From: Girardia tigrina
Taxonomy: Eukaryota
Direction: 5' to 3'
Assembly: GCA_001938485.1 (NCBI GenBank)
Contig: MQRK01255124.1
Coordinates: 1 to 64,000 of the forward strand
Length of the DNA stretch: 64,000 nt
Shown: positions 35,597 through 63,500 of the stretch, piece by piece
Numbering within the stretch: position 1 is the first letter of the stretch
Layout: each line of letters starts with the position of its first letter
The notes under the pieces: generated by a model
What the model was told of the DNA's origin: nothing
Databases searched by the model: none
What the model saw: only the letters and a program-made list of their open reading frames with translations
Position numbers and translations under genes: made by a program

Positions 35597-38269
35597 CAAT
35601 ATTTATATTTATATACATATAAAGGATCTTAAATATTATTATGACATTCTCCTGAATTATTGATAAAATGTTGTTCCCAGACAACAGTGGCGTAGCAACT
35701 GTTATTGGCGCCCGGGTCGGTCCTAAGATTGACCGCCCCCATAACTTTAACCCTAAACCCTAACCCTAACCATAAGCCCTAACTTTAACCCATTATTCGG
35801 AACCCTCAATTAGTGTCTTCGTTAAAAATTAAATAGAGTTATGTTATTGCTGGTCTCAAAATCTTTACTTTAATTTCATATTTTTCTTACGATACTCTTA
35901 TTCTTATACTAAGAATTATCAAGTAACGAAGTCATTTCAAAATTTTCAATTTTATTTACAATTTACAAGCGAAATTCTCATACTTCCATTTTCTACAAAT
36001 TTATTGATAACAGTATCAAAATTCATTTCAGTAGCAAGCTTTCTCTCAATGGAAAGGACTGCCAAGTCTGTAAGCCTTGATTGACTCATTGTAGCTTTAG
36101 TTTTGAAAACTAGCATTCGCAGCTGGTAACGCTAGTAGCCCGGGTAATAAAGATGCCCAGCAAGATCGCAATATTAAGGACGAATTCCCAAGGTTATCTC
36201 TCTGTATGAAGCTCAAAAGTTCTAAAGGGTCTGTTGATTCTGTAGTTTTCTGAAACTCGGACAAAATACTACATTCTTCTTCTTTCGGCTTACAATTCCT
36301 TTTTCTCCACCTCGTCTTCTAATGTTCTAAGCTGGCAATAGTAATTATAATCAAAGAGATTCGATAGTGCAATGAGAGTATATTTGTTTGCATGATCATA
36401 AACTTGTTGAAATGTTGAATATATTTCCTCAATTAACCTATCTACGACAGACAGCATTTCCTGTCTCAACCCAACATCAAATGTCATCGCTACATCGACG
36501 CTCCATGCTTATCCACATTTCAAAGAAGAGCTTCTAAGATTCGACCATTGCAATGCCCACCATCCTTTCTCTATTCTTAAAAATGTAATCTCTCAGTGCT
36601 GAGCTTGACAGAATTTTGATGCAGACCAAGCAATTTTGTTTAAAGACACTTCTTGGCATCATTGATCTCTGGTAGAACATAATTCTAAAGGCTCAGAAGC
36701 GACAGAAACGGAAATGACAGTACTGATGATAGAAGAAAAGAGGCATCTGATCTTGTCGTCACATTCTCTCCTTCTTTGGTGAACTTCACCAGAGCAGTCA
36801 CGACAAGTGATAATTTGTTCAAGAGAATATTTATAGCATTTGATCGAGTGCTCCATCTAGTTTCCACAAGCCGCTTAATATTTAGACCAGTCTCATGACT
36901 CAAAACATCCCAGCGATGCGTATATGCGGAAATGAAAGAGAACAACCGGTCCAATATGCCAAAGCATGTAACAGAGTGAACCACAACAGAAGCTGCATGT
37001 ATGCAAGTCAAATTCTGGGTGTGATTTGAGCATGGCACAAATACAACTTTCATGTTTATTTTGGAGATGTGCTTCTGGACGCCCGATCGATGGGCAGCCA
37101 TAACAGTAGGCCATGGCAATCATCAATCTGAATCTCGTCCTTTTCTAGTTGTCTGAATATCAGTTCACAAATTTCCGTTGCGCTTTTTCACTTTGTCTCG
37201 ATAAAGCGGACAAACGACTCCTCCACTTTCACTTCATTTTCATCCATGTTTACGAAGCTTAAGATCTCGTTGAATTGGTCGTTGTACGATATAGCTGTCT
37301 AAAATTATTCAAAAATACTTGCTCTTCTTGACTTGTGCGATGATTTTCTGTCTCACCTGCTGTGTTAATATGACTAGAAACTCATTTTGAACCTCTAGTA
37401 ACAAATATGAATTGATGATATATTTTCCCAGCTTAATTTTTATCAAATTTTCACGTAGCACAGGGTCATACTTAGCAAACAAATGAACCAATTCCCAATT
37501 TTTTATTCTATTTTCCTGATTTCCGTCGTCGTGAATGTCTTCCCGGTGGCCCCTTAGTCCCAGTAATCTAGCCAGACTTTCTCGCAATTTCTTAGTTTCT
37601 TTCTCAATTAATTCTTCCTCTACTTTTTTTATTGCCTTTCTTTCAGCGAGCCGGATCTCTACCTTTTTCCACTAGAGGCAGCAGCAGTATTGATTTAAAA
37701 TGTTGTATTAGTAATATAAACTTCATCTAAAAAGAATTTGTGCATCTCTGGCAAGAGACAAATCTTCAAGCCCATTGGCAGTTTTCACTAAATTCAGTGT
37801 CATTGTAACATTCTGTTATGGCCAGCATTTCTGATTAGATTTTTCTTCATTTTTTTATATATATAATATTATTTCCATTCCCAAATATCACCCCCAACAA
37901 TAATGCCACCCGGGGCGGACTGCCCCCCGCCCCCCTTCTTGGTTTGTCAACAATGAAATACCACTACTCTGATTGTTTCTTTACTTACTCAGTAATGCAG
38001 CACAGTTGACTTTGGTCAATTTGTTGTGGAGAAAAGGGAGCGATCTTCGGATGCTCTCGAGATGTTCTGAGGACAGTGTCAGGTGGGGAGTTTGACTGGG
38101 GCGGTACATCTGTCAAATGGTAACGCAGGTGTCCCAAGGTGAGCTCAACCAGGACAGAAACCTGGTGTAGACAAAAAGGGGAAAGCTCACTTGATTTTGA
38201 TTTTCAGTACGAATACAGACCGTGAAAGCGCGGTCTATCGATCCTTTTGAGTTTATCTTCAGAGTTTGA

Positions 38270-38302
<33 letters not shown>

Positions 38303-41300
38303 CAGGGATGTCTGTGCGGCCAGTGGGCATACTTCTACGTAGTATCCCTGAGAAACTAGAAGAAGGGTTTGATTCCGTCTCTAGGCTAAAGTGCCCGAAA
38401 GCTAGCCTTTCATTGCGGAAACAGCCGGCAATGTATCGTATTCAGGAATGGGCCAGGCGGAACTAAAGCATGCTCGACCCCAACATTGGGTTAGTGCTTG
38501 TTGAGAACCATCAGAGTCCCAGGCCTCCTATAAAGCCTCAGGCTTAATACTCGACAGGAGTTGAGGTGCACCACAGGGATGGGATACAATGTCGCTCGCC
38601 TCCCCGTGGTGTATCCTGGGAACTAGAAAGAGGGTCTCTCCCCTTTCTAGAAATAGAAGGGGGGGTCTCCTTGATCTTGCTAAATGAGTAGACGGATCGA
38701 TAGTGCCAGCAACTCTGTCTTTCGCTAAGACGCCGCTAACAAAACCCAAAACAGGGGTCTGGAAGGACCCGAAGTCATTAAGCTCCCGAGAGGGGGATCC
38801 CTCGTTAAGGATTCCACTATCAGTGGATTGAAGATTGGAACATGGAATGTTCGAGGATTGACCGACGAGAAGATACTAAACATCTCATGTATCTTTGAGA
38901 AATTAAAACTGGATTTGTGCATACTCACAGAGACGCACTGGCTTGGAAACGACATTACCTCATTCGGGGAATGGAGGATTCATCACAGTGGCAGTACGAG
39001 TGGCACTCGTGAAAGAGGCGTAGCCGTAATGATTCGATCGAGAGATTCCAAAGATGTGGAATTTGAAGCAGTAAGCGAGAGAGTTTTTCTCTGTCATATA
39101 CCCCACAGAAAGATCACATTAGTGGGTGTATACGTTCCAACTGACAGTGGATACTCGAGTGAAGAGAAGGAAGAGTTCTTTATTACACTACAAGAACAAA
39201 TTGAGAAGGCAACGGCTGAAGCAGAGAAGAGACGATTCGAGCTAGTAATTGGAGGTGACTTCAATTGCCGGCTCAGCCGGACGGACGAGAATGAGAAGAC
39301 GGTAGGGTGCTACACTAGTTCAAAGGTTACATCAGAGAATGGAGAACTTCTTATAGATCTCGCAGAGGCGTGCAACTTAAGGATAGAGAACACGTTCTAT
39401 AAACACAAGTTGACGCAAAGAACTAGCTGGACGCACCCTGCCACAAAGCAGAGACTACTATTGGACCTATTTCTGGTGCAGAAAAGCAGATGCAACAGGA
39501 TTAGGAATGTCAAAAGTTATCCTAACTTTGACTGCGGTTCAGATCATGACTTAGTCGTGTTAACAATACTTGTCAATAATAATAAGCAACTCAAATTGAC
39601 AAACGACAGAAGGAAGAAAAGCAAAGGAAAGGTGGACAGATTCTCTCTGCAGAATAACAAAGAGGCTATCAGCGCGGAGATTGGACGGGAATGTCCAAAG
39701 ATCGAGAGCTGGGACGATCTGGAAAAGACGGTCACAAGTACCATGGAGAAGTACCGTAAGAAGAAAGTCCTACTCAATCAAAGGTGGCTACATGAGCACC
39801 TAGAGGAGCTGAAGCCTCTACTGCAGGAGAAATGGAAACGCAGAAGAGAATATATGCAGAATAGGTGTGAAAGAACCTACTCAATATGGAAGGCTGCAAG
39901 ATTAACAACCTTGCGGATTCTCAGAAAATGGAAAAGAGAGAGGATAGAGACTATAGGCCAAGAGATAGAAGGGATTCTTAACAGAGAATGTCTCGGAAAG
40001 ACTTCTGAGCTATACACGGAACTCAGAATCTTGTGTAACAGTCAAACAAAGGAATCCTCTCTCTGTTCAGTGGAGAGTAGTATCAAAGACGAAGTGTTGG
40101 CAGAACACTTTTCACGCCTATTCAAGAAGAATGAAGGAGACTATGTCTTGGAACTGGATCAAAGTCAACAATTGGATATCAACTATTTACCGGACGTGGA
40201 AGAAGTGGGTGCCGCAATAACACAACTCAAAAACGGCACGGCTGCTGGAAACAATGGTATCATTCCAGAGCTATACAAGTGGGGAGGCCACCAGCTAACG
40301 ATCAAGATTATGCAATGTTTCGAGGCCATCTGGGAGGGAAGAGCAGAATTCCCGGAAGCATGGAAAACGGCGAAAGTCGTTATCCTTTACAAAGAGAAAG
40401 GGTCTAAAAAAGACTTGAATAATTACAGAGGAATATTCCTACTTGATGTAGGCGGAAAGATAATGGCTCGAATCATCGCAAACCGACTGATACCACATCT
40501 TGAAAGGATACTGGATGATTGGCAATTCGGCTTCAGGCCGAAAAGAAGTACTGGACAAGCGATAGGTATCATAAAGAAGATACAAGAAGAGGCAAGATAC
40601 CGAAGCAAAAGCGTATATGCAATATTCATCGACCTTGAGAAGGCTTTCGATAGTGTTCCCAGGAAAGTTCTCTGGGACTGCCTTCAAGGAATTGGGGTAC
40701 AAGGACATATGCTGAACGTCATCATGAAATTCCACGAAAACTTCACGGGTAGTATAGGAAAAGAAGTATTCCAGATGGACAAGGGAGTGCGACAAGGTTG
40801 TGTATTAGGACCCCTGCTATTCAACCTTGTCTTCGACTGTGCGATCAAAATATCAGTCAAGGATGGTCTATCAGGTGGAGTACAGGTGATTCACAATGGA
40901 GAAGTACTACTCGTGAATCGATTGGCGTACGCAGATGACTTGTGCCTGCTGGACGAAGATTATGGGAATATTGAGAAAAATATGACATGTCTAAACACTG
41001 CGTTTAAGAAGATGGGGCTCAAAGTAAACATTGGGAAAACGAAGATACTTAACCTCAATGGAGCCAGATATATCACGGCACGAGACGAGCTGAACGCCGG
41101 GATCGAATGGGTGGATGAATTCTGCTACCTGGGCTCCATAATTGAGAGCGGAGGGAGCTCAGGTGTAGATATCAAAAGCAGAATCAAGAAAGGAGTAATC
41201 AAACTAAGAACGATTAGACCAGTGTTGAAGAACAACAAGTTGTCCCTCTGAAACAAGCGCAACATCATCTCCAGCTGTGTATTCCCTGTGGTCTACTACA

Positions 41301-44300
41301 GCTGCGAGAACTGGAGGACAAACGAAGATCATGTCAAGAAGCTAAAAGCATTCCACAACTTGTGCACGCGGCGGACTCTGGGAGTTTCAAAAACTGAACG
41401 AATAAGAATGGATGAATTATCTATTGGGCTGCAAAGTCCGATGGATATTCTAGCACGAAGAAGATTGAATCACAACATCAAAATCGAACTCGGAGATTGC
41501 CCGGAGAACGTCAAACAAGTTTACGAATGTGAACTTATCGGAGGGAAAAAGGTAAGTGGGAGACGCAAACAACATTTGGCTGAATGCCTAAGAGTGGACG
41601 CTAATTGGCTCTTCGGTGACAATTACAGTGTCGGAGAGTTTAAAAGGGATATTCAGCAGGAGAACTTGTCTACAACGGATGCGAAGATGGCGAAAATCTA
41701 CAGAATCAAAAGAATCAACAGAAATGGAGACGAGAAAACACTAAGATTAGTGTTGCCCCGTCTGAAAGAGCACAGCTGCCCGATGGATGCCTGTTACAAG
41801 CAGTATGCAGAGGTGAAGGAGCTAAACAGGCATCTCAGAAGGGATCATGAAGGAGCCGAACCCATCCCGAGGAAACAAAGAGAGAAGAAAGCCCAGCCAC
41901 GACAGAAGAAAGGAATCTACAATTGCCCGCAGTGCCCCAAAGAATACAAAACTGCAGGATTCCTCAAAATCCACATTCAAAAGAATCACAAAGAAGAATC
42001 AGAACAATCCAACGCCCAGCAAGGAGATAATTTGGTCATCGAGAGAGAGGAAGAGCCGACAACAATCCAAACCAACCTTCAATTACCAGACGCAACTGAG
42101 AACACGCCGAGGATTTCTGGGACAGAAGACAACTCTACATATCACCGTGAAGAATCGCCGCACCGACAATACCGATTGCCAGCCAACTATGCAAAAGCAA
42201 AAGGACATTTTCAGTGCCCATTCCGAGGATTTTACGCGTCCACCGTAACCGCCAAAGGTATGTATGGCCATGGCACCAAATTCCATGGCTGGTCTTTAGC
42301 AACTGGAAAACCGATCGTTCGCAGGCAGAAGGACACTGACCCCGTAGGAGGCCTATCGGGGGGCCCTTAAGGACTTTAGTTTGGGTGGACCCTCTAAAGA
42401 GCCTTAGGCTCAATACCATTGAAAGAGATGGGAGGCCCACCACAGGGATCAGGGATCGCTGTGCGGCCAGTTGGCATACTTCTACGTAGTATCCCTGAGA
42501 AACTAGATTTGGTTCGATTCTGTCTCTAGGCTAAAGTGCCCGAAGCTAGCCTTTCATTGCGGAAACAGCCGGCAATGTATCGTATTAGGAATGGGCCAGC
42601 AATCCATTCACTAGGCTACGCTTTTCAATCTGGGTGTGAAGGCAGTGGGGAGTAGTGACCCTGCTGTCGATGGTTGGATTGCATCTTCATGATCTAGGAT
42701 GAATCAATCCCGGTGAAGGGTGTCGTAATGACGTCGTTGCATCTTCGGACTGGCGGAACAAAGGCATGGATCCTAACATTGGGGGAGTGCCCGTTGAAAA
42801 CCATCAGCGTCCCAGGCCTCCTATAAAGCCTCAGGCTTAATACTCGAAAGGAGTTGAGGTGCACCACAGGGATCGGGGATCGACTGTGCGGCCAGATGGG
42901 CTTACTTCTTCGTAGTATCCCCGAGAAACTAGAGTGGGTTCGACTCCTGAATCTAGGCTTAAGTACCCGAAAGACGTATACGTAAGTCGTCTGTAAGATG
43001 ACTTACTTGGCCCGATCGATCGAAGGACACACTAACACTGTGTTGCTCTAATTTAACTCGGTAGTCAGCAAAGGAGTAGAACATTAGTTTCGAGATCCGG
43101 AGCATGACATGTGAGCTTCACTGATATACTCTTCCTGATGAAGTGCAACCTTGAAATGTTTTTTGTTGCACATGATTCGGGTCGTGTTCAGACGGCTAGA
43201 AACGATTTTTTTACACTCTCCTGTGCCAACTGGTTGGGGTTTCTAGTTTGTCAAGGGTATACATTGCACTAGCCAGAAGAAACTAGTACTTGCACGAAGT
43301 GTCCCCGGATAGTGAATTGTTGCATTGTGACAATGGATTGATTTTTTTTCGATCTGTGAAAATCTCGATCAGCCAATGTGAGCATATTGAAATGATTTGT
43401 TTTGCCCGCATTAGCGATTTTTTTTGGTTGAGATCTTTACTGGTCTGATCTATTGAAGCGGTGTGATGGTTCATGAACTAAACTAGGAACGTTATGCGGT
43501 CTGTACCCTCGGATGGTCTGAATTACTCAATGGCAGTAGGTAGTAGCATTTGATATTTATATGGTACTAAATAATTAGTACTAGCTACTACCGGCATTTT
43601 AACTGAGTCACTGTTAAAGAGTAAGGAGGTAAGTTCAAGGTGTCGGTAATCTTATCCTTCCTATTGAAATGTTCTTATTTGGGAGTGGACTGATTGCAAG
43701 CTTTGCAGACCTGGCGTGGAAAGTTGCAGACCTGATCTACTAAATTCGTTAGACCTTGCACAATATCCTGATCAATCACGCTTTTTCTAGATATTGTAAT
43801 CAGTGCCACATAATTGTCACAAAAAAATTAAAAAAAAAGCGGACTTGATAAACAAAAAATAACAAAACATTTCAAATATCATTTATCAAATCACATCTTG
43901 TCGTAACGAATTACATGTCACGTATAATGCATTCAATAACAAAAAACATTTCAAATGAACACAATATACGCGAGTACTCCCCATTTGCCGGTTATTACCA
44001 ACAATTGAGCATAGGCACCCTATATTTTTAAATATTTTTTTAGTGTCGAACTTTTTTTTAATTTAAAACAAAAATTCAATTTTGAAAAATATTTATTTAT
44101 TTTTATTGATTTTTTAATTAAATTTAATGTATTTTTTACTTTTGTAATTGTTAAAAGAATTTTTTTGAAAAAAATGTGACTTTAGTAATTTAAAATAAAT
44201 TTATTAAAATATTTTGATTAAAAATTTGGGCTGGGGTGCTAGGGTGAATGCAGTTGGTTACACAGAGGTGCTACGCACGGTTGTTAAGTAGTTATTTATA

Positions 44301-44579
44301 AGTTGTTATTGTAACGTCATCACTGAGCAATCTGGGGGTCCCGTGAAGCATGGCAAAAATGACTTCGATGACTCTATCCGCGGGCGGTGAGAGAGTTGTT
44401 GGGGACATTACTCGAGTCATAGGGCTTAGCCTGTGGAGTACATTAGTACAAGGGTTGGTCTCAGCACGGAGAATAGTTCCAACTAGTCATTATATATGGC
44501 GCATGGGACAATATTAAAACTCCGGATTCACCACAAGGATAACTGGCTTGTGGCGGCCAGGCGTTCATAGCGACTTGCT

Positions 44580-44622
<43 letters not shown>

Positions 44623-44657
44623 GAATTCACAAAGAGTTGGATTGTTCACCCACCAAT

Positions 44658-44699
<42 letters not shown>

Positions 44700-47600
44700 A
44701 TTTACCGTACTATATAATATACTTTCTACTACTATAATAATATACTTTCACAATTGTACAAAGTGCAATGTATTCATGTTTTAATATAATATAGTGTAAA
44801 GTGAGGCAGAACATACATATGGTATAGCCTAAGCAAAGGGCGAAGCAAGAAAAATATCGAAAATCTGCCTGAACACATGTATAGTAACCCATAGGTAAAT
44901 AGTCGGAATATGATCTTAGATTCTCGAAAAAATCAATAAATAGTGCTTTATTAATATGTTGTGTATAATAGCTGTATAATAGTTGTATAATAGCCTAGGC
45001 ACAGGTCGAAGCAGACGCTTGTGGCCACCAAGCGTTCATAGCGACTTGCTTTTTTGATCCTTCAAGTTCGGCTCTTTCTATCATTGTGAAGTAGAATTCA
45101 CAAAGCGTTGTATTGTTCACCCACCAATAGGGAACGTGAGCTGGGTTTTGACCGTCGTGAGACAGGTTAGTTTTACCATACCATATAAACCGTCATTACA
45201 ATAGTAATTCTGTTAAGTACGAGAGGAACCACAGATTCGGATCACTGGTAAATGTGACCTCAAAAAATGTTGTAACCTCATGCTGTCGCAGACGAGTAAT
45301 TATGTTTGTCGTTGATTACATTCAGATGCGCATCCGTTAGAAATGCAACGTCCTGTTTATCCTGGTTGAACCGTCTTGGCATTGTCTACAAACGATGCCG
45401 ACGTCGGAACAAACAGGATGCCCCTGGATTCACAATAACAATTATGGAACTTTATGGAATTTGTAAGTTCAATTAATTAATTAAAATTTTTAATTAAGGT
45501 TTTTTGTTTTTAGCTTTACTCGAACGGATTTGAAGCAGTGGGACCGGAATCCTGACCCAGCTCATCATCGTGACATGACGGGCTGTGGGCCCCCGCCTAG
45601 ATCAATGTCGATCTGGGTTGATTTTATGTTGTGTAAGCACATATTCTTCTCCAGTGAATGCATCGCTCATGTCTACATGAAATGTGTCGACTGTGAACTT
45701 GTGGCACTGTCGTGTCTGCTTGGTCTAAATTCATGAAAACCATCATTATTATATATGATAAATTAATAATTCTAATAAATTAATAATGAGATGGAAGTGG
45801 AGAAAAGGAAAATTTTAATTATTTTAGATAATGCACCATCCCATCCGAATATCCAACTTTCGGCAATAGAGTTTTTATATTTGCCAAAGAACACAACTTC
45901 CATAACACAGCCATTGGAAATGGATTTGATAAAGGCATTCAAGGATCATTACAAGAATTCTTTTGTTGATTTTTTGGCAACTGAAGAAGATGATTTAAAT
46001 AATGATCCATTTAAAAACATTAATATTAAAAACGCTATTGTTTTTACTTTTATTGCCTGGGAGTTAATATCCAAAGAGTCGATTATTAATTGTTTCAAAA
46101 AGGAATTTTCCAAAAAAGAAGAAACCAACCAAAATTCATATGCTTGAGGAAAATATAGAGGACGTTATTGTTGAGGTTTATGAAAAAAAATTTATCAGAA
46201 CTACTGGAGAAGGAGACCGGAAAAGCTGAAATTTGTGAAAAAGTTCGTTATGATAAACTAAAGCTGGGATGGGAAAAACTTAAAGAATTGGAAAATGTTA
46301 TTGAATATACACCTTTTGATGTTCAAAAAGAATATATCAAGTTTAGAATGCAATTTAATACGCCACTGTCAGATATCTGGGTAGTGGGATGATTGATTAA
46401 TATTCAATATTATTATAATATATATTAAGAACATTAATTGGGTTTTCTTTACATTTATTTATATCACAATTTGAATTATCACTAGAACAATTCTCCGTAA
46501 AACTTGTGTAGCTCGTCATAGTTCTTGATTGATAATCTTTAATAATATTCTTTAACGTCTTATTATTAAAACAAATTTAAGTTACAATTTAATTATTAGA
46601 AAAATAATTTATATTTTAAATTTAAAATAATTTTTATTTATTTTAAGAAATTATTATTAAAATATTATTTATGAAATATTAGTTTAATTTTAAAGTGATT
46701 ATTTAACTTTGAAGAATTGATTAAACAACCCGACGTTTTAAAATATCAATCTTCCATCTGGGTGGGAGAAACACAATCCTAAAACAACATACCAAACAAC
46801 ACACAATAAACACCATTCAAAAATATTCCTCACAATATATATTCAATATTAATTGTTGCTCACAAAATACAGATAATTGTAAGTACATTGTATTTTTAAA
46901 TTTTTTTATAATGTAGCTTTGCTTTTTAGAATCCGCATGAAGTATTCAAAAACTCATCTCCTAAAAGGAAAGAGGCAATGGGTGGAAATGGTGGCAATCC
47001 AAGGAATGCAATTGATACTGTGCTTTCAGATATGAATCTGAGCACCGAAATTCTTCCACACATGCCAAAGAAAAAAAAGAACTTTAACAGAGTAAATTTA
47101 CTAATTAACAGGAACTCCAACATCCAACACAACCACATCCGTGTTTCCAATAACAAAGAAGTATTAAGTATCAATTCATGATTCTGGAGAGGATGATCAA
47201 GACAGAATATTGGCAATAGGCGAGAGAGAATTTCTGGCGGAGCTGGACAAACACTCAATATTTGGGGACGCCATCTTTGACAAAACACTCAATATGCTCT
47301 ATCAGTATGTATTGCATTGATTTCCTTCTTCTGAGAAAAAAATCAAGGGACATATAGAATAATGCTTATTATATTGAAAGACCTTCTTCCAAACTTCTTT
47401 CCTCATAAATTCCTCATTAACTTTGAGAAAGCTCAGGAAGAATTTCCAACAGTTCAAGTGAAAGGATGTGACTTCCACACTTGCCAAAGCTTTGTTAGGA
47501 ATTCTGGATCAGTTGGAATGAAAACTGAGTTTGATTCTGATCATGATGTCAAAGTTAGAATCAAATCAGTAACTGCTGTTACATTTGTTCCACCAAATGA

Positions 47601-59125: not shown

Positions 59126-59525
59126 TACATTTGGTATATAATATGTGTAAATATATATTAATATATAATATATGTTTGGTTTACTCGATACAGACGCTGA
59201 ATGTCAAGCATACAAACAAACTGTTCATGATTTGTGTGTTTTTACTGGGTGTAAGTAATTGAGTTATTACTTTCATCAGTTATTACTGGAGTTAAGGAAC
59301 ACTTTAAAGAAGAAAATACAGAAGAATGCAAACATTAAAATACCATATTTTGAAGGATTAAGAGCTTTTAAGAAGAGTATTTGTAAAATGATAAGTAGTG
59401 CCAAAGTAATCTCTGTCACATCCAAAGTTGAAAGTTTCCTCTAAAAAAAACAGTTTGTGGATTGCAAGCTAATCTGGTATATAAATTTAATTGTCACGGG
59501 TATCGAAATTTGTACGTTGAAGAGT

Positions 59526-60974
59526 TCTACTGAATGACTCATTTGTAGATTTAGGACTTAAGATCAATATAAATAAGACCAAAGTTATGAACCTAAACGG
59601 AGATACCAAAGTTCTCACCACCGGACACCAGCTTGAGACTGGTATTGAGTGGGTATTCAAATTCGTCTATTGGGGTTCCACAATCTCCTCAAATGGTACC
59701 GCTGAAGATGAGATAAGAGAAAGAATTCAAAAGGGTACCAGGAAGATCAGGGACCTCAAACCGGTTTTGAGGAGCTCCAAACTCTCTTTACGGAACAAGA
59801 AGAAGATTGTCAGCTCTTGCATACTTTCCGTAGTATACTACAGTTGTGAGAGTTGGCGAACAGGTAACAAAACAATCAAGAAGCTGGCTGCCTTTCATAA
59901 TTTGTGTACTCGCACAATCATGAAAGTGCAGAAGACTGAGAGGATACAGATGGACACTATCGACATTGGACTCCCGCTCCCCACGAATATCATTGCAAGC
60001 AGAAGACTTGCCTATCACAGCAGGTTGGACACCTCTGATACACCAAATATTATGAGGTGTGTGTGGAGAGCAACAATGCCAATGGGAAAGAAGATCAGTG
60101 GGAGAAAGAATCAAGCTCTCTCCGAATGCCTCAGAGTGGATATACAGTGGCTCTTTGGGGATAGTGCAAAGTATGAAGACTTCATACACCACATTGTCAC
60201 AGAGACCCCACAATAGATAGAAGGCAATACATCAACTTCTTAATAAGAGAAGGGAAGCAGAACAGAACAAGAGCCGATCTACCGAAAGTACTCAATGAGA
60301 GAGATAAACTCCTTCAATGTACGATAGAAGATTGCTTTAAGAAGTTTGCCGAACAAAAGGAGCTAAATAGACATCTCAAGCGGTATCACACGGAATCCAC
60401 AGTAAGCATCCCGCTTCAGCTCCCAGAAGATGAAAAACCGTTTAAATGTACCAAATGCAGCAAAGGTTACAAAACGAAAGGATGGTTCACTAGGCATCTG
60501 CGTAAAGATCATCGAATAGAAGCGAGGGAGAATATCAATGAACATCTGACAGAATAATCAGTGCAATCCAACAGAAGAAGCGACAATCCAGACAGAGACG
60601 AAGAACCCACACTTATCCAAACGACAAATTTTCAGCAACAGTTACCCCGACTATTTCAACGGTGGTGGAGCAAACGACTTATCCCGAAGATACACATTTG
60701 TCTTTTAGGATCGCAGATCCAAATGCGAGGGGAAATTTCAAATGTCCCTTTCGCGGCTGTACCAAGTCCACCAATACAGCCAAAGAGATGCTCAATCATG
60801 GTACCACAATTCATGATTGGTCGTTTGCAACAGGGAAGCCAAAGAAATTTCGGAGACTGAAGCACTCCGTCAACGTAGGAGGTCTATCGAGGGGCAGCTA
60901 GCTCTCTTAAGTTTGGGTGGACCCTCTAAAGAGCCTAGTGGCTCAATACCATTCGAAAGAGATGGGAGGCTCAC
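59526..60974 (+). mobile_element. 5'-truncated relative of the unit-2 LINE
   Basis: LGLKININKTK...VVYYSCESWRT...LSECLRVD, zinc fingers and the same 3'UTR; flanked by acgttgaagagt at 59514-59525 and 60973-60984. Confidence 0.9.
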
Positions 60975-60984
60975 GTTGAAGAGT

Positions 60985-61095
60985 GGAATATAACGCTGCT
61001 CGCCTCCCCGTGGTGTATCCTGGGAACTTGGGAGAGGGGTTCTTTCCTTTCTAGAAATAAATTGGGGAGGTTTTCTTGATCTAGGCTAAATGAGT
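60985..61095 (+). ncRNA. Degenerating HDV-like ribozyme
   Basis: ggaatat...gctcgcctccccgtggtgtatcctggg...gCtaaatgagt; one P1 mismatch. Confidence 0.75.
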
Positions 61096-63500
61096 AAGGT
61101 AGCGGATTAACGGTGCTAGCATCTCTGTCTTTCGCTAGTCCAAAGCTATGAAAACTCAAACTAGGGGTCTGACAGGACCCGAAGTCATTAAGCTCCCGAG
61201 AGGGGAATCCCTTGTTAATGATTCCACTTGCAGTGGACTGAGGATTGGAACATGGCACGTAAGAGACTTAACCGACGAAAAGATACTGAACATGATATGT
61301 ATTTTGACAAACTTAAAGTTGATATGTGCATCCTGACCGAGATGCACAGGATTGAAACGATATTGCCTCCATAGTGGAATGGAGAATCCATCATAGTGGC
61401 AGTACAAGTGGGACACGTGAGAGAGGTGCTGCCCTGATGGTACGATCAGTTGATTCGAAGGGAGTGGAATTTGAAGCTGTCAGCAAAAGACTATTCCTGT
61501 GCCATATACCCAAAAGGTTACAATCATTTGTAGGGGTATATGCACCAACGTACAGTGGATATTCAAGTGAGCAGAAAGAGGAGTTCTTCGTATCGTTACA
61601 AGAAAAAGTGGAGAAGGTGACTGTTGAAGCTGAGCGCAGAAAATACGAATTGGAGGCGACTTCAACTGCAGACTTAATCGGACGGAAGAGACCAGAGGAA
61701 GTATCCGGGTGGTACACTAGTTCATCAGCAAGATCATAGAATGGTGATCATGTTATTGATCTCACAGAGGAATGTAATTTGCAAGTAGAGAACACCTTCT
61801 ACAGGCATAAACTAGCGCAGAGAACTAGTTGGACACACGCAGTAACGAAGCAGCGCTTATTACTGGACCTGTTTTTAACACAAAAGAGCCGCTGCAGCAG
61901 GATATTAAATGTCAAGAGTTATCCAAATTTTGACTGTGGATCGGATCACGACTTAGTCTTATTAACCTTCTGAGTTAAAAATGATGGCAAGAAAAGCCTC
62001 AAGCTTGCTAATGATCGAAGAAAGAAGTGCAAAGGAAAGTTTGACAGATTCTCTTTGATGAACAACAAAGACACAATCAGTAGAAACATTGGACAGGTTT
62101 GTCCGAATGTTGAGAGTTGGGACGAATTAGAAAGAGTAGTTGTTTTTACAGCTAGCAAATACCGAAAGAAGAAAATCCCGCTTAATCAAGCTGGATTCAC
62201 AACCACCTAGATGAACTAAAGACGTTGTTACAGGAGAAATGGAAACGAAGGAAGGAGTTCATCCAGAATAGATGCGAACAAACGTATGCCAAATGGAAAG
62301 CTGCGCGACTGAATACATTATAGCAGCTGAGAAGATGGACGAGAGAAAGGATATAGATCATCGGACCTGAGATTGAAGGCGTGCTGAACAGAGAGGGCAT
62401 AGGGAAAACCTCTGAACTATATACGGAACTCAGAGCCCTATGCAATAGCGAAACAAAAGAATCAATCCTCTACACAGTACAGAGTAGTTTGGCAGACGAA
62501 GTGTTAGCAGAGCACTTCTCGAATCTATTCAGGAAGAGTGAAAGAGACTATGTCGTGATTGCAGATCAGAGACATATCTTGAATATTGACAACTTACCGG
62601 ATGTGGAAGAAGTGGGTTCCACAATAAATCAACTCAAGAACGGTACAACTGCTAAGAACAATGGTATCATCCCAGAGTTATACAAGTGGGCGGTCAACAG
62701 TTAACTCTCAAGATCCAGCAATTTTTTTAACTAATTCGGGAGGGAAGAGCAGACTTCCCGGAGGCATGGAAAACAGCGAAATTTGTAATCCTATATAAAG
62801 GGAAAGGTTCAAAGAAGGATTTGAACAATTACAGAGGAATCTTTCTACTCGATGTAGAAAGTAAGATAATGATGCGAATCATTGCAAACAGATTAATGCA
62901 ACACCTTGAGAGAATATTGGATGACTGGCAATTTTGGTTCAGGCCCAAAAGAAGAACAGCACATGCGATTGGCATCATTAGAAAGGTGCAAGACCAGGCC
63001 AGATACCTCAATATCAACGTGTGTACAATATTTATCGACATTGAAAAGCTATTCGCCAGGAATTGGAGTACAGGGTCGCATATTAAGCATGATAATGGAT
63101 TTTCATGAAGGATTTACAGGAAGTGTTGGTAAGAGCATTTTCACAATGGAGAAAGAAGTCCGACAAGGTTGCGTACTCGGTCCCCTACTATTCAACCTAG
63201 TATTCGACTGCGCAATCAAAACTGCCATCCAAGAAGGACTAAGTGGAGACGTGAAGGTCAAATGGGAAGACGGAGAAATACTAACTGTAAACAGGCTGGC
63301 ATATGCTGACGAACTATGTTTACTGGACGAGGATTACGAAAACATAGAGAAAAACCTAACGTACCTAAATACTGTGTTTCTTAGAATGGGGTTGAAGATC
63401 AACAGTGGGAAGACGAAGATCCTTAATCTCAATGGGGCCAGATATGTAACGTCGGAAACAAACTGAGTACCGGTGTAGAATGAGTGGAGGAGTTTAGTAA
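60985..63500 (+). mobile_element. Decayed 5'-complete copy of the same LINE family, 3' part missing
   Basis: Ribozyme, APE (GTWHVR, GSDHDLV) and RT ([25 protein letters not shown]) with many frameshifts. Confidence 0.92.

Follow-up and report, generated by a model that had tools for sequence, protein, structure and literature searches.

In a 64,000-nt, AT-rich stretch of the Girardia tigrina genome (contig MQRK01255124.1, positions 1 to 64,000; hereafter the window), a long interspersed nuclear element (LINE) and short non-coding units lie head to tail inside a fragment of a 28S rRNA gene, and the LINE and two of the short units end in related sequences. All observations are compatible with a shared, selected 3′ RNA structure through which the short elements would use the LINE protein. 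We posit, with a probability of about 0.7, that during target-primed reverse transcription this tail is the tag by which the LINE reverse transcriptase (RT) stringently selects its template and that the two short units, A and B, are non-autonomous parasites of the LINE family. The direct support consists of the common target, the 11-bp duplication, the tandem array, tail homology, covariation, folds resembling the hepatitis delta virus (HDV) ribozyme and the use of the same 28S base by two distant relatives.

A Tail Shared by the LINE and the Short Units

An initial annotation of the window had quoted four related tail strings, from the array LINE, units A and B and a second-family LINE elsewhere in the window, and had described them as lacking poly(A). 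All four strings are present, and their ends carry neither poly(A) nor a repeat tail, with none of 31 Tandem Repeats Finder (TRF) rows falling there. A pattern spanning helix P2, AATAC and GAGG, derived from these same copies, matches four times in the 64 kb and never in 100 shuffles. A covariance model trained on the two window LINE tails only was searched against 81 sources totalling 480,322 bases, namely the window and 80 metagenomic loci. It returned five matches up to E 10, the E-values being rough: the two training copies, the metagenomic locus L034 (2.3e-6), unit B (0.016) and unit A (0.021). The last 100-nt bin is 82% identical between the main and second-family LINEs, versus 42-67% for each of the 14 bins upstream. 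Together, the independent model matches and this conservation argue that the shared module is real and selected. It sits at the exact 3′ end in all five carriers and measures less than 90 nt. Folded in isolation, the tails outdo shuffled sequences by a modest margin only (z -0.7 to -1.8). Rfam gave no match at the tail up to E 5, and on this ground a hammerhead, a twister or another Rfam family was rejected.

The terminal CAC, described earlier as invariant, is present as a string, but it consists of a C followed by the first two bases of the target duplication. The same AC stands after a T in the upstream copy of both duplications found in the window (38292, 59514), and in the metagenomic relatives L038 and L040 the last base before it is T and C, respectively. 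Annealing of the RNA end to the target through AC, as the annotation proposed, is plausible; because AC is target DNA, such annealing is indistinguishable from an endonuclease preference for T/AC, and the fact that two unrelated targets both begin T/AC fits either alike.

The Array and Its Target

The 28S fragment holds, in tandem head-to-tail order, short unit A, the LINE, short unit B and unit C (Table 1), set apart by exact copies of the 11-bp duplication ACCACAGGGAT. This 11-mer has five plus-strand copies, all at junctions, against a chance expectation of 0.61 matches; its far end coincides with L2449, a group I intron site close to the peptidyl-transferase centre. Units A and B are 88-92% identical, A being B minus its middle ~150 nt, and the ribozyme of unit C is 83% identical to that of unit B, so the three are not duplicates of one another. 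With ribozyme and body included, the short units have zero blastn similarity to the three window LINEs, and against L040 they give only two 16-nt matches, at chance level; the tail is the only LINE-like sequence detected in them.

Several further features accompany the array. Within unit C, 43151-43954 is bounded by a perfect 17-nt inverted repeat, ~770 nt apart, perhaps a miniature inverted-repeat transposable element (MITE)-like insertion. A GC-richer segment at 44230-44529 ends at the last duplication in a long 3′ hairpin (z -2.0) without a tail-model match and is possibly the end of another element family at the same site; the stretch before 44530 was considered as a degenerate tail, for which the model gave no support. 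Further on, at 45017-45188, the downstream 28S piece occurs a second time in a more decayed state, with 92% identity to 44546-44717.

Table 1. Positions of the array units, tail elements, other LINE copies and a related 3′ structure (window coordinates unless a locus is named)
Feature	Position	Strand	Remarks
28S rRNA gene fragment, target upstream half	37771..38302	+	decayed dispersed copy; Rfam RF02543, E 2e-61
First copy of 11-bp duplication	38292-38302	+	end of upstream 28S piece
Short unit A, 267 nt	38303..38569	+	predicted HDV-like ribozyme 38303-38396; tail 38523-38567
11-bp target duplication ACCACAGGGAT	38570..38580	+	other copies 42439-42449, 42863-42873
LINE, whole array copy	38581-42438	+	
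LINE 5′ end, predicted HDV-like ribozyme	38581..38691	+	Rfam HDV matches below gathering score (E 0.28, 2.2); descriptor match
LINE single open reading frame (ORF)	38729..42370	+	APE endonuclease, RT, three C2H2-type zinc fingers
LINE 3′ structure, predicted four-way junction	42350..42437	+	alignment and RNAalifold
P0	42350-54/42433-37	+	predicted; pairs with terminal bases
Pa	42358-62/42390-94	+	predicted; takes CCUC strand
P2	42399-403/42407-11	+	predicted
AAUA linker	42412-15	+	
P3	42416-19/42428-31	+	predicted
Alternative P1 of initial annotation (CCUC/GAGG)	42391-94/42432-35	+	
Short unit B, 413 nt	42450..42862	+	predicted ribozyme 42450-42541; three-way tail 42816-42860
Unit C	42874..44529	+	diverged short-type ribozyme, then unexplained sequence up to last duplication
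Last duplication copy	44530-44540	+	one mismatch
28S sequence, restarting exactly at duplication	44530..44697	+	Rfam
Second-family LINE, 5′-truncated, outside rDNA	59526..60972	+	tail of same type 60881-60971
Third LINE copy	60985..63480	+	decayed ribozyme at start; 3′ end missing
Second 3′ untranslated region (UTR) structure	L040:4310-4420, L038:4655-4760, L053:2760-2850, L049:4505-4600		predicted pairs

Fold of the Tail

The tail had been drawn as a three-way junction in LINEs and short units alike, with its stems kept through compensatory change. This holds for the two hairpins: in an alignment fitted to the model, P2 is paired in 25 of 25 cells, two of its pairs being double-sided, and P3 in each of its 26 filled cells; a MAFFT alignment of three LINE tails leaves P2 and P3 fully paired with three double-sided changes, and the linker between them is kept as A(A/G)UA. 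It does not hold for the closing stem CCUC/GAGG, which is identical in all four window copies, hence without covariation, and loses three of its four pairs in L034 in the MAFFT register. When at least 110 nt of upstream RNA are included, the pairing probability of this stem in the two window LINEs is at most 0.17. The three-way junction is still predicted for the short units, whereas a four-way junction fits the LINEs better. Modeling thus describes two related forms: LINEs probably end in a four-way junction that reaches into the last codons, and short units in a three-way junction that lacks the Pa arm.

Aligned by MAFFT without guidance, the three LINE tails pair in 60 of 62 cells of the four-way fold with six double-sided changes, a result reached by one or two of 500 shuffles, which ignore relatedness; RNAalifold predicts the same fold unprompted. 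An upstream motif in the last codons, kept in all three LINE tails, supplies the 5′ strands of P0 and Pa. The peptide encoded there, PVGGLSG, is kept in six protein clusters (P0001, P0002, P0007, P0010, P0288 and P0290), and in the frameshifted relatives P0128 and P0286 the 3′ UTR translates to the same 14 residues as in the window. In the short units almost nothing separates AGGCCU from the UAUA linker, which reads as loss of the Pa arm. For these units the four-way fold was rejected, its energy exceeding that of the three-way fold by 10.4 kcal in B and by 11.7 kcal in A.

Ribozyme-Like 5′ Ends and a B Box

A descriptor of the HDV-like double pseudoknot places P1 at the first base after the duplication in all four units (A, LINE, B and C); the same descriptor gave three matches in 30 shuffled 6-kb sequences and none in nine loci of the LINE clade. 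Its matches in the short units, at 38303, 42450 and 42874, are paired in 66 of 69 cells, and unit C has a compensatory change in P1, which argues that P1 is encoded by the element. In units A and B the duplication itself can alternatively form P1, a behaviour that resembles the cleavage-site shift model of R2 (PMC3774820). An invariant CTGTG in J1/2 of the short ribozymes (38313-38317, 42459-42463, 42884-42888) is complementary to CACAG of the duplication and might block the alternative P1.

The B box consensus of RNA polymerase III (Pol III) promoters was used to scan the window. Exact matches occur twice in the 64 kb, at 42511-42520 in unit B and 42937-42946 in unit C, both in ribozyme P4, and the ribozyme of unit A has a one-mismatch version at 38366-38375; the shuffle rate is ~0.001 per unit. 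An A-box scan of the short units did not list the candidate in J1/2, and the A box is unconvincing. Unit B contains an internal T4, and runs of T6 and T7 lie downstream of the ribozyme in unit C at 43159 and 43206. ARAGORN found 0 genes and the Rfam scans found no tRNA family, giving no sign of a tRNA-derived head in the short units.

The LINE and Its Relatives

The ORF of the LINE starts ~150 nt after the element's 5′ end and encodes APE followed by RT without an ORF1; there is neither room nor a frame in the window LINE for an ORF1 upstream of APE-RT, an R1/Tx1 trait, and the 3′ short tandem-repeat tail of the RTE type is absent from the window LINE ends. The second-family LINE shares 35-50% amino-acid identity with the main LINE and is flanked by a 12-bp duplication (59514-59525 and 60973-60984) that also begins with AC and differs from the 11-mer. 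The third LINE, 72% identical to the main LINE in nucleotides, begins directly after this duplication. The stretch 59514-60984 is a tandem LINE insertion that reuses a single 12-bp duplication at a site outside ribosomal DNA (rDNA), and these tandem LINEs suggest repeated insertion at element 5′ junctions.

The metagenomic relatives are the best 80 of 130 loci from a second metagenome scan; the first had confirmed 0 of 195 candidates. Viral contigs gave 0 confirmed loci in four protein scans and 0 matches to the tail pattern, and a scan of prokaryote genomes gave 33 loci at 24-46% identity, zero of them with the zinc-finger C terminus. L001-L033 are eukaryotic LINE fragments filed in prokaryotic genome records and are likely contamination. 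The protein of L034, the metagenomic locus with the tail and a member of the clade described below, is 35% identical to that of the window LINE over APE-RT and 27% over the C-terminal part.

The 28S segment of the array recurs in two of the 80 metagenomic loci, L038 and L040, both of which end at the identical 28S base (L038:4800, L040:4475). In an RT tree of 93 rows, picked by RT coverage without curated references, these two loci and the window LINE fall in one clade (support 100/99), most members of which have several C-terminal fingers; it stands apart from PF20049-bearing and single-finger relatives, neighbours that we take to be RTE elements. Other finger-bearing loci with DNA past the ORF (L034, L037, L049 and L053), like the second window LINE, are not in 28S, so the use of 28S is a preference rather than a strict specificity. 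L038, L040, L049 and L053, which form a sister subclade, share a different covarying 3′ structure without a tail-model match: in this second 3′ UTR structure, double changes affect 16 of 34 predicted pairs, and in L038 and L040 it lies ~60-100 nt before the 3′ end. The last zinc finger of the clade (CPF-GC...NHG...H-WS), together with the basic stretch that follows it, is kept across many metagenomic LINE proteins (P0001-P0011, P0289-P0341) and makes a candidate DNA- or tail-binding module.

Elsewhere in the window, an intronless EF1-alpha with one N lies at 1231-2673 and a short mixed telomere-like repeat at 35748-35791. The EF1-alpha shares 92% identity with a Humbertium protein and ~80% with those of other named flatworms, a pattern that by itself would make a land planarian the likely host.

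A Proposed Mechanism and Its Alternatives

In the mechanism that we propose, the LINE protein would copy the short units into the same 28S site via the shared tail. The APE domain would nick at T/AC, and each ribozyme would free the 5′ end of its own unit from a co-transcript; in the array, cleavage by the next unit's ribozyme would leave the preceding unit with the 11-nt duplication as a 3′ overhang. This overhang could then pair with the nicked primer strand, AC annealing being the first two of up to 11 pairs, and the B box in the short ribozymes could serve Pol III transcription.

Several observations weigh against this reading. The tail model finds no match in L038 and L040, although their 28S site is identical, nor in unit C and the sequence before the last duplication (to 44529). 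There is no sign of current activity, because the main LINE has an in-frame stop codon (41249-41251) and the 28S copy is a fragment. Cleavage before a C, unusual for the HDV-like class, is what the short ribozymes are predicted to perform (C1-G37). The DNA analysed covers only three LINE families and two near-identical short units, and the four-way fold was chosen after L034 had been inspected. Fold energies are nearly tied in the window LINEs (-36.0 vs -35.6 and -34.1 vs -33.1); in L034 the constrained four-way fold (-31.3) loses to both the free fold (-44.1) and a shifted three-way fold (-37.2), and the probability of P2 is 0.00 in longer context. For P0 and Pa the ensemble probabilities vary widely with the span chosen for folding, and the lowest-energy fold of unit A differs from the three-way fold.

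One rival concerns the fold only and has the RT-tag function in common with our explanation: the CCUC/GAGG three-way junction would work in the LINE too, or the LINE tail would switch between three-way and four-way forms, with the RT reading the three-way form that the short units mimic. The three-way junction is the lowest-energy fold of unit B and of the last 51-55 nt in both window LINEs, its energy there differs from that of the four-way fold by no more than ~1 kcal when longer context is included, and L034 can form a shifted UCCU/AGGG version of it. We nevertheless regard this rival as unlikely, since its closing stem shows the lack of covariation and the broken pairs described above, and it leaves the conserved last-codon motif unexplained; the shifted reading of L034 was set aside as incompatible with the register of the alignment and with a bulged P3. 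The module might instead be selected for 3′-end formation, RNA stability or translation termination, with template choice made via read-through target sequence. The absence of poly(A) calls for some other 3′ protection, the module spans the stop codon with P0 and Pa overlapping the last codons, and the same site is used by L038 and L040, whose 3′ structure is a different one. Translation is not its sole role, because the non-coding short units keep the module; its placement at the exact end of every carrier, and the stringent 3′ recognition established for R1, R2 and many RTE-SINE pairs (SINE, short interspersed nuclear element; PMC3747384, PMC3414825), also make this second rival quite improbable. 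A third idea, in which the short units arose by neutral deletion or are assembly duplicates and owe their tail likeness to plain inheritance, would suit the small number of short copies, three in all and confined to one array. We give this idea very little credence: the identities among the units are not those of duplicates, the LINE gives no alignment with the ribozyme and body of the short units, P2, P3 and ribozyme P1 all show compensatory changes, and each short unit has its own duplication.

Comparison with Known Systems

Among known systems, the short internally deleted elements (SIDEs) of Drosophila, both R2/R1 hybrids and R2 SIDEs, resemble the short units in being non-coding, in having a 5′ HDV-like ribozyme and a partner-like 3′ end and in sharing the partner's 28S target and duplication; the hybrids are interspersed with the partner LINE in tandem 28S arrays (PMC3414825). 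Conserved 3′ segments of the partner LINE, a SIDE trait, are kept in units A and B and were not found in unit C. The differences are that the partner in Girardia is a single-ORF, RTE-like APE element rather than R1 or R2, at a different 28S site; that the short-unit ribozyme does not align to the window LINEs, whereas the SIDE 5′ part has identity to autonomous R2; and that the short units carry a B box, whereas SIDEs are defined as not transcribed by Pol III (PMC3414825). Because their partner is neither R1 nor R2, the short units are not members of the SIDE family.

Hijacking of a LINE by a short element through a shared tail is an established mechanism, and it is common for LINE-SINE pairs to share a structured tail (PMC3747384). 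Like the Girardia elements, both the stringent pairs of this kind and bipartite non-autonomous RTE elements have a structured 3′ tail in common (PMC3747384, PMC5786205), and RTE 5′ ribozymes have been reported (PMC5786205). The present elements differ from these pairs in having no microsatellite or poly(A) tail and no tRNA head, and in combining a multi-helix junction, instead of one stem-loop, with rDNA targeting (PMC3747384, PMC5786205). The clades listed as both target-specific and ribozyme-bearing are R1, R2 and R4, not RTE (PMC5786205), and the APE groups that Kojima and Jurka describe as target-specific are Tx1 and R1 (PMC4640811). Perere-3 of Schistosoma is a flatworm RTE whose ribozyme cut site adjoins the target duplication, like the one predicted for the window LINE; unlike this LINE, Perere-3 uses twister variants rather than HDV, is not site-specific and has a GTAA repeat tail (PMC8501958). 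The 3′ junction of LIN9_SM, a NeSL-related planarian element of Schmidtea, lies 3 nt from the array site in 28S; it differs from the window LINE in its antisense orientation, its T-run tail and its NeSL lineage of the restriction-like endonuclease (RLE) type (PMC4640811). The two elements represent parallel use of one hotspot. The RT elements of Anopheles, which belong to the R1 clade, use a 28S site further downstream.

The 5′ end of L1Tc/NARTc and ingi/RIME has a dual promoter-ribozyme role, and the short partners are internal-deletion derivatives with poly(A) tails that are not known to target rDNA. The pairs L1Tc/NARTc and ingi/RIME parallel the Girardia array in their short non-autonomous partners, and L1Tc in its 5′ HDV-like ribozyme (PMC5786205, PMC6765202). 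The full-text literature searched, which did not extend to Repbase, subscription papers and bioRxiv supplements that may hold such a case, contains no RTE-like element at this 28S site and no such junction. The lineage and the target of the LINE thus appear undescribed. It is possible, at somewhat less than even odds, that they represent a third, old lineage of rDNA-targeting APE elements outside R1/Tx1. Such a lineage would be RTE-like, with a C-terminal triple zinc finger, aimed at the peptidyl-transferase region of 28S, defined by ribozyme cuts at both unit ends and by a four-way tag plus an 11-nt overhang, and exploited by parasites in which the HDV ribozyme also acts as Pol III promoter. 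If this is true, the dual role of the ribozyme would avoid the loss of a SINE head placed upstream of a ribozyme.

Significance

What the present case adds is a tail that is compact (<90 nt), free of poly(A) and equipped by nature with both covariation and a one-arm deletion, so that template recognition by the RT of an APE-type, single-ORF element becomes directly testable. According to a 2026 review, the APE platforms RTE-1, Vingi-1 and L2-2 integrate at random, and R2 is the rDNA-targeted option (PMC13708176). If our reading is true, a compact RTE-like element that prefers a conserved 28S site, with natural trans-mobilised templates, once proven, and defined RNA ends, would broaden the evolutionary picture of these elements and add to the candidate tools for RNA-based gene insertion.

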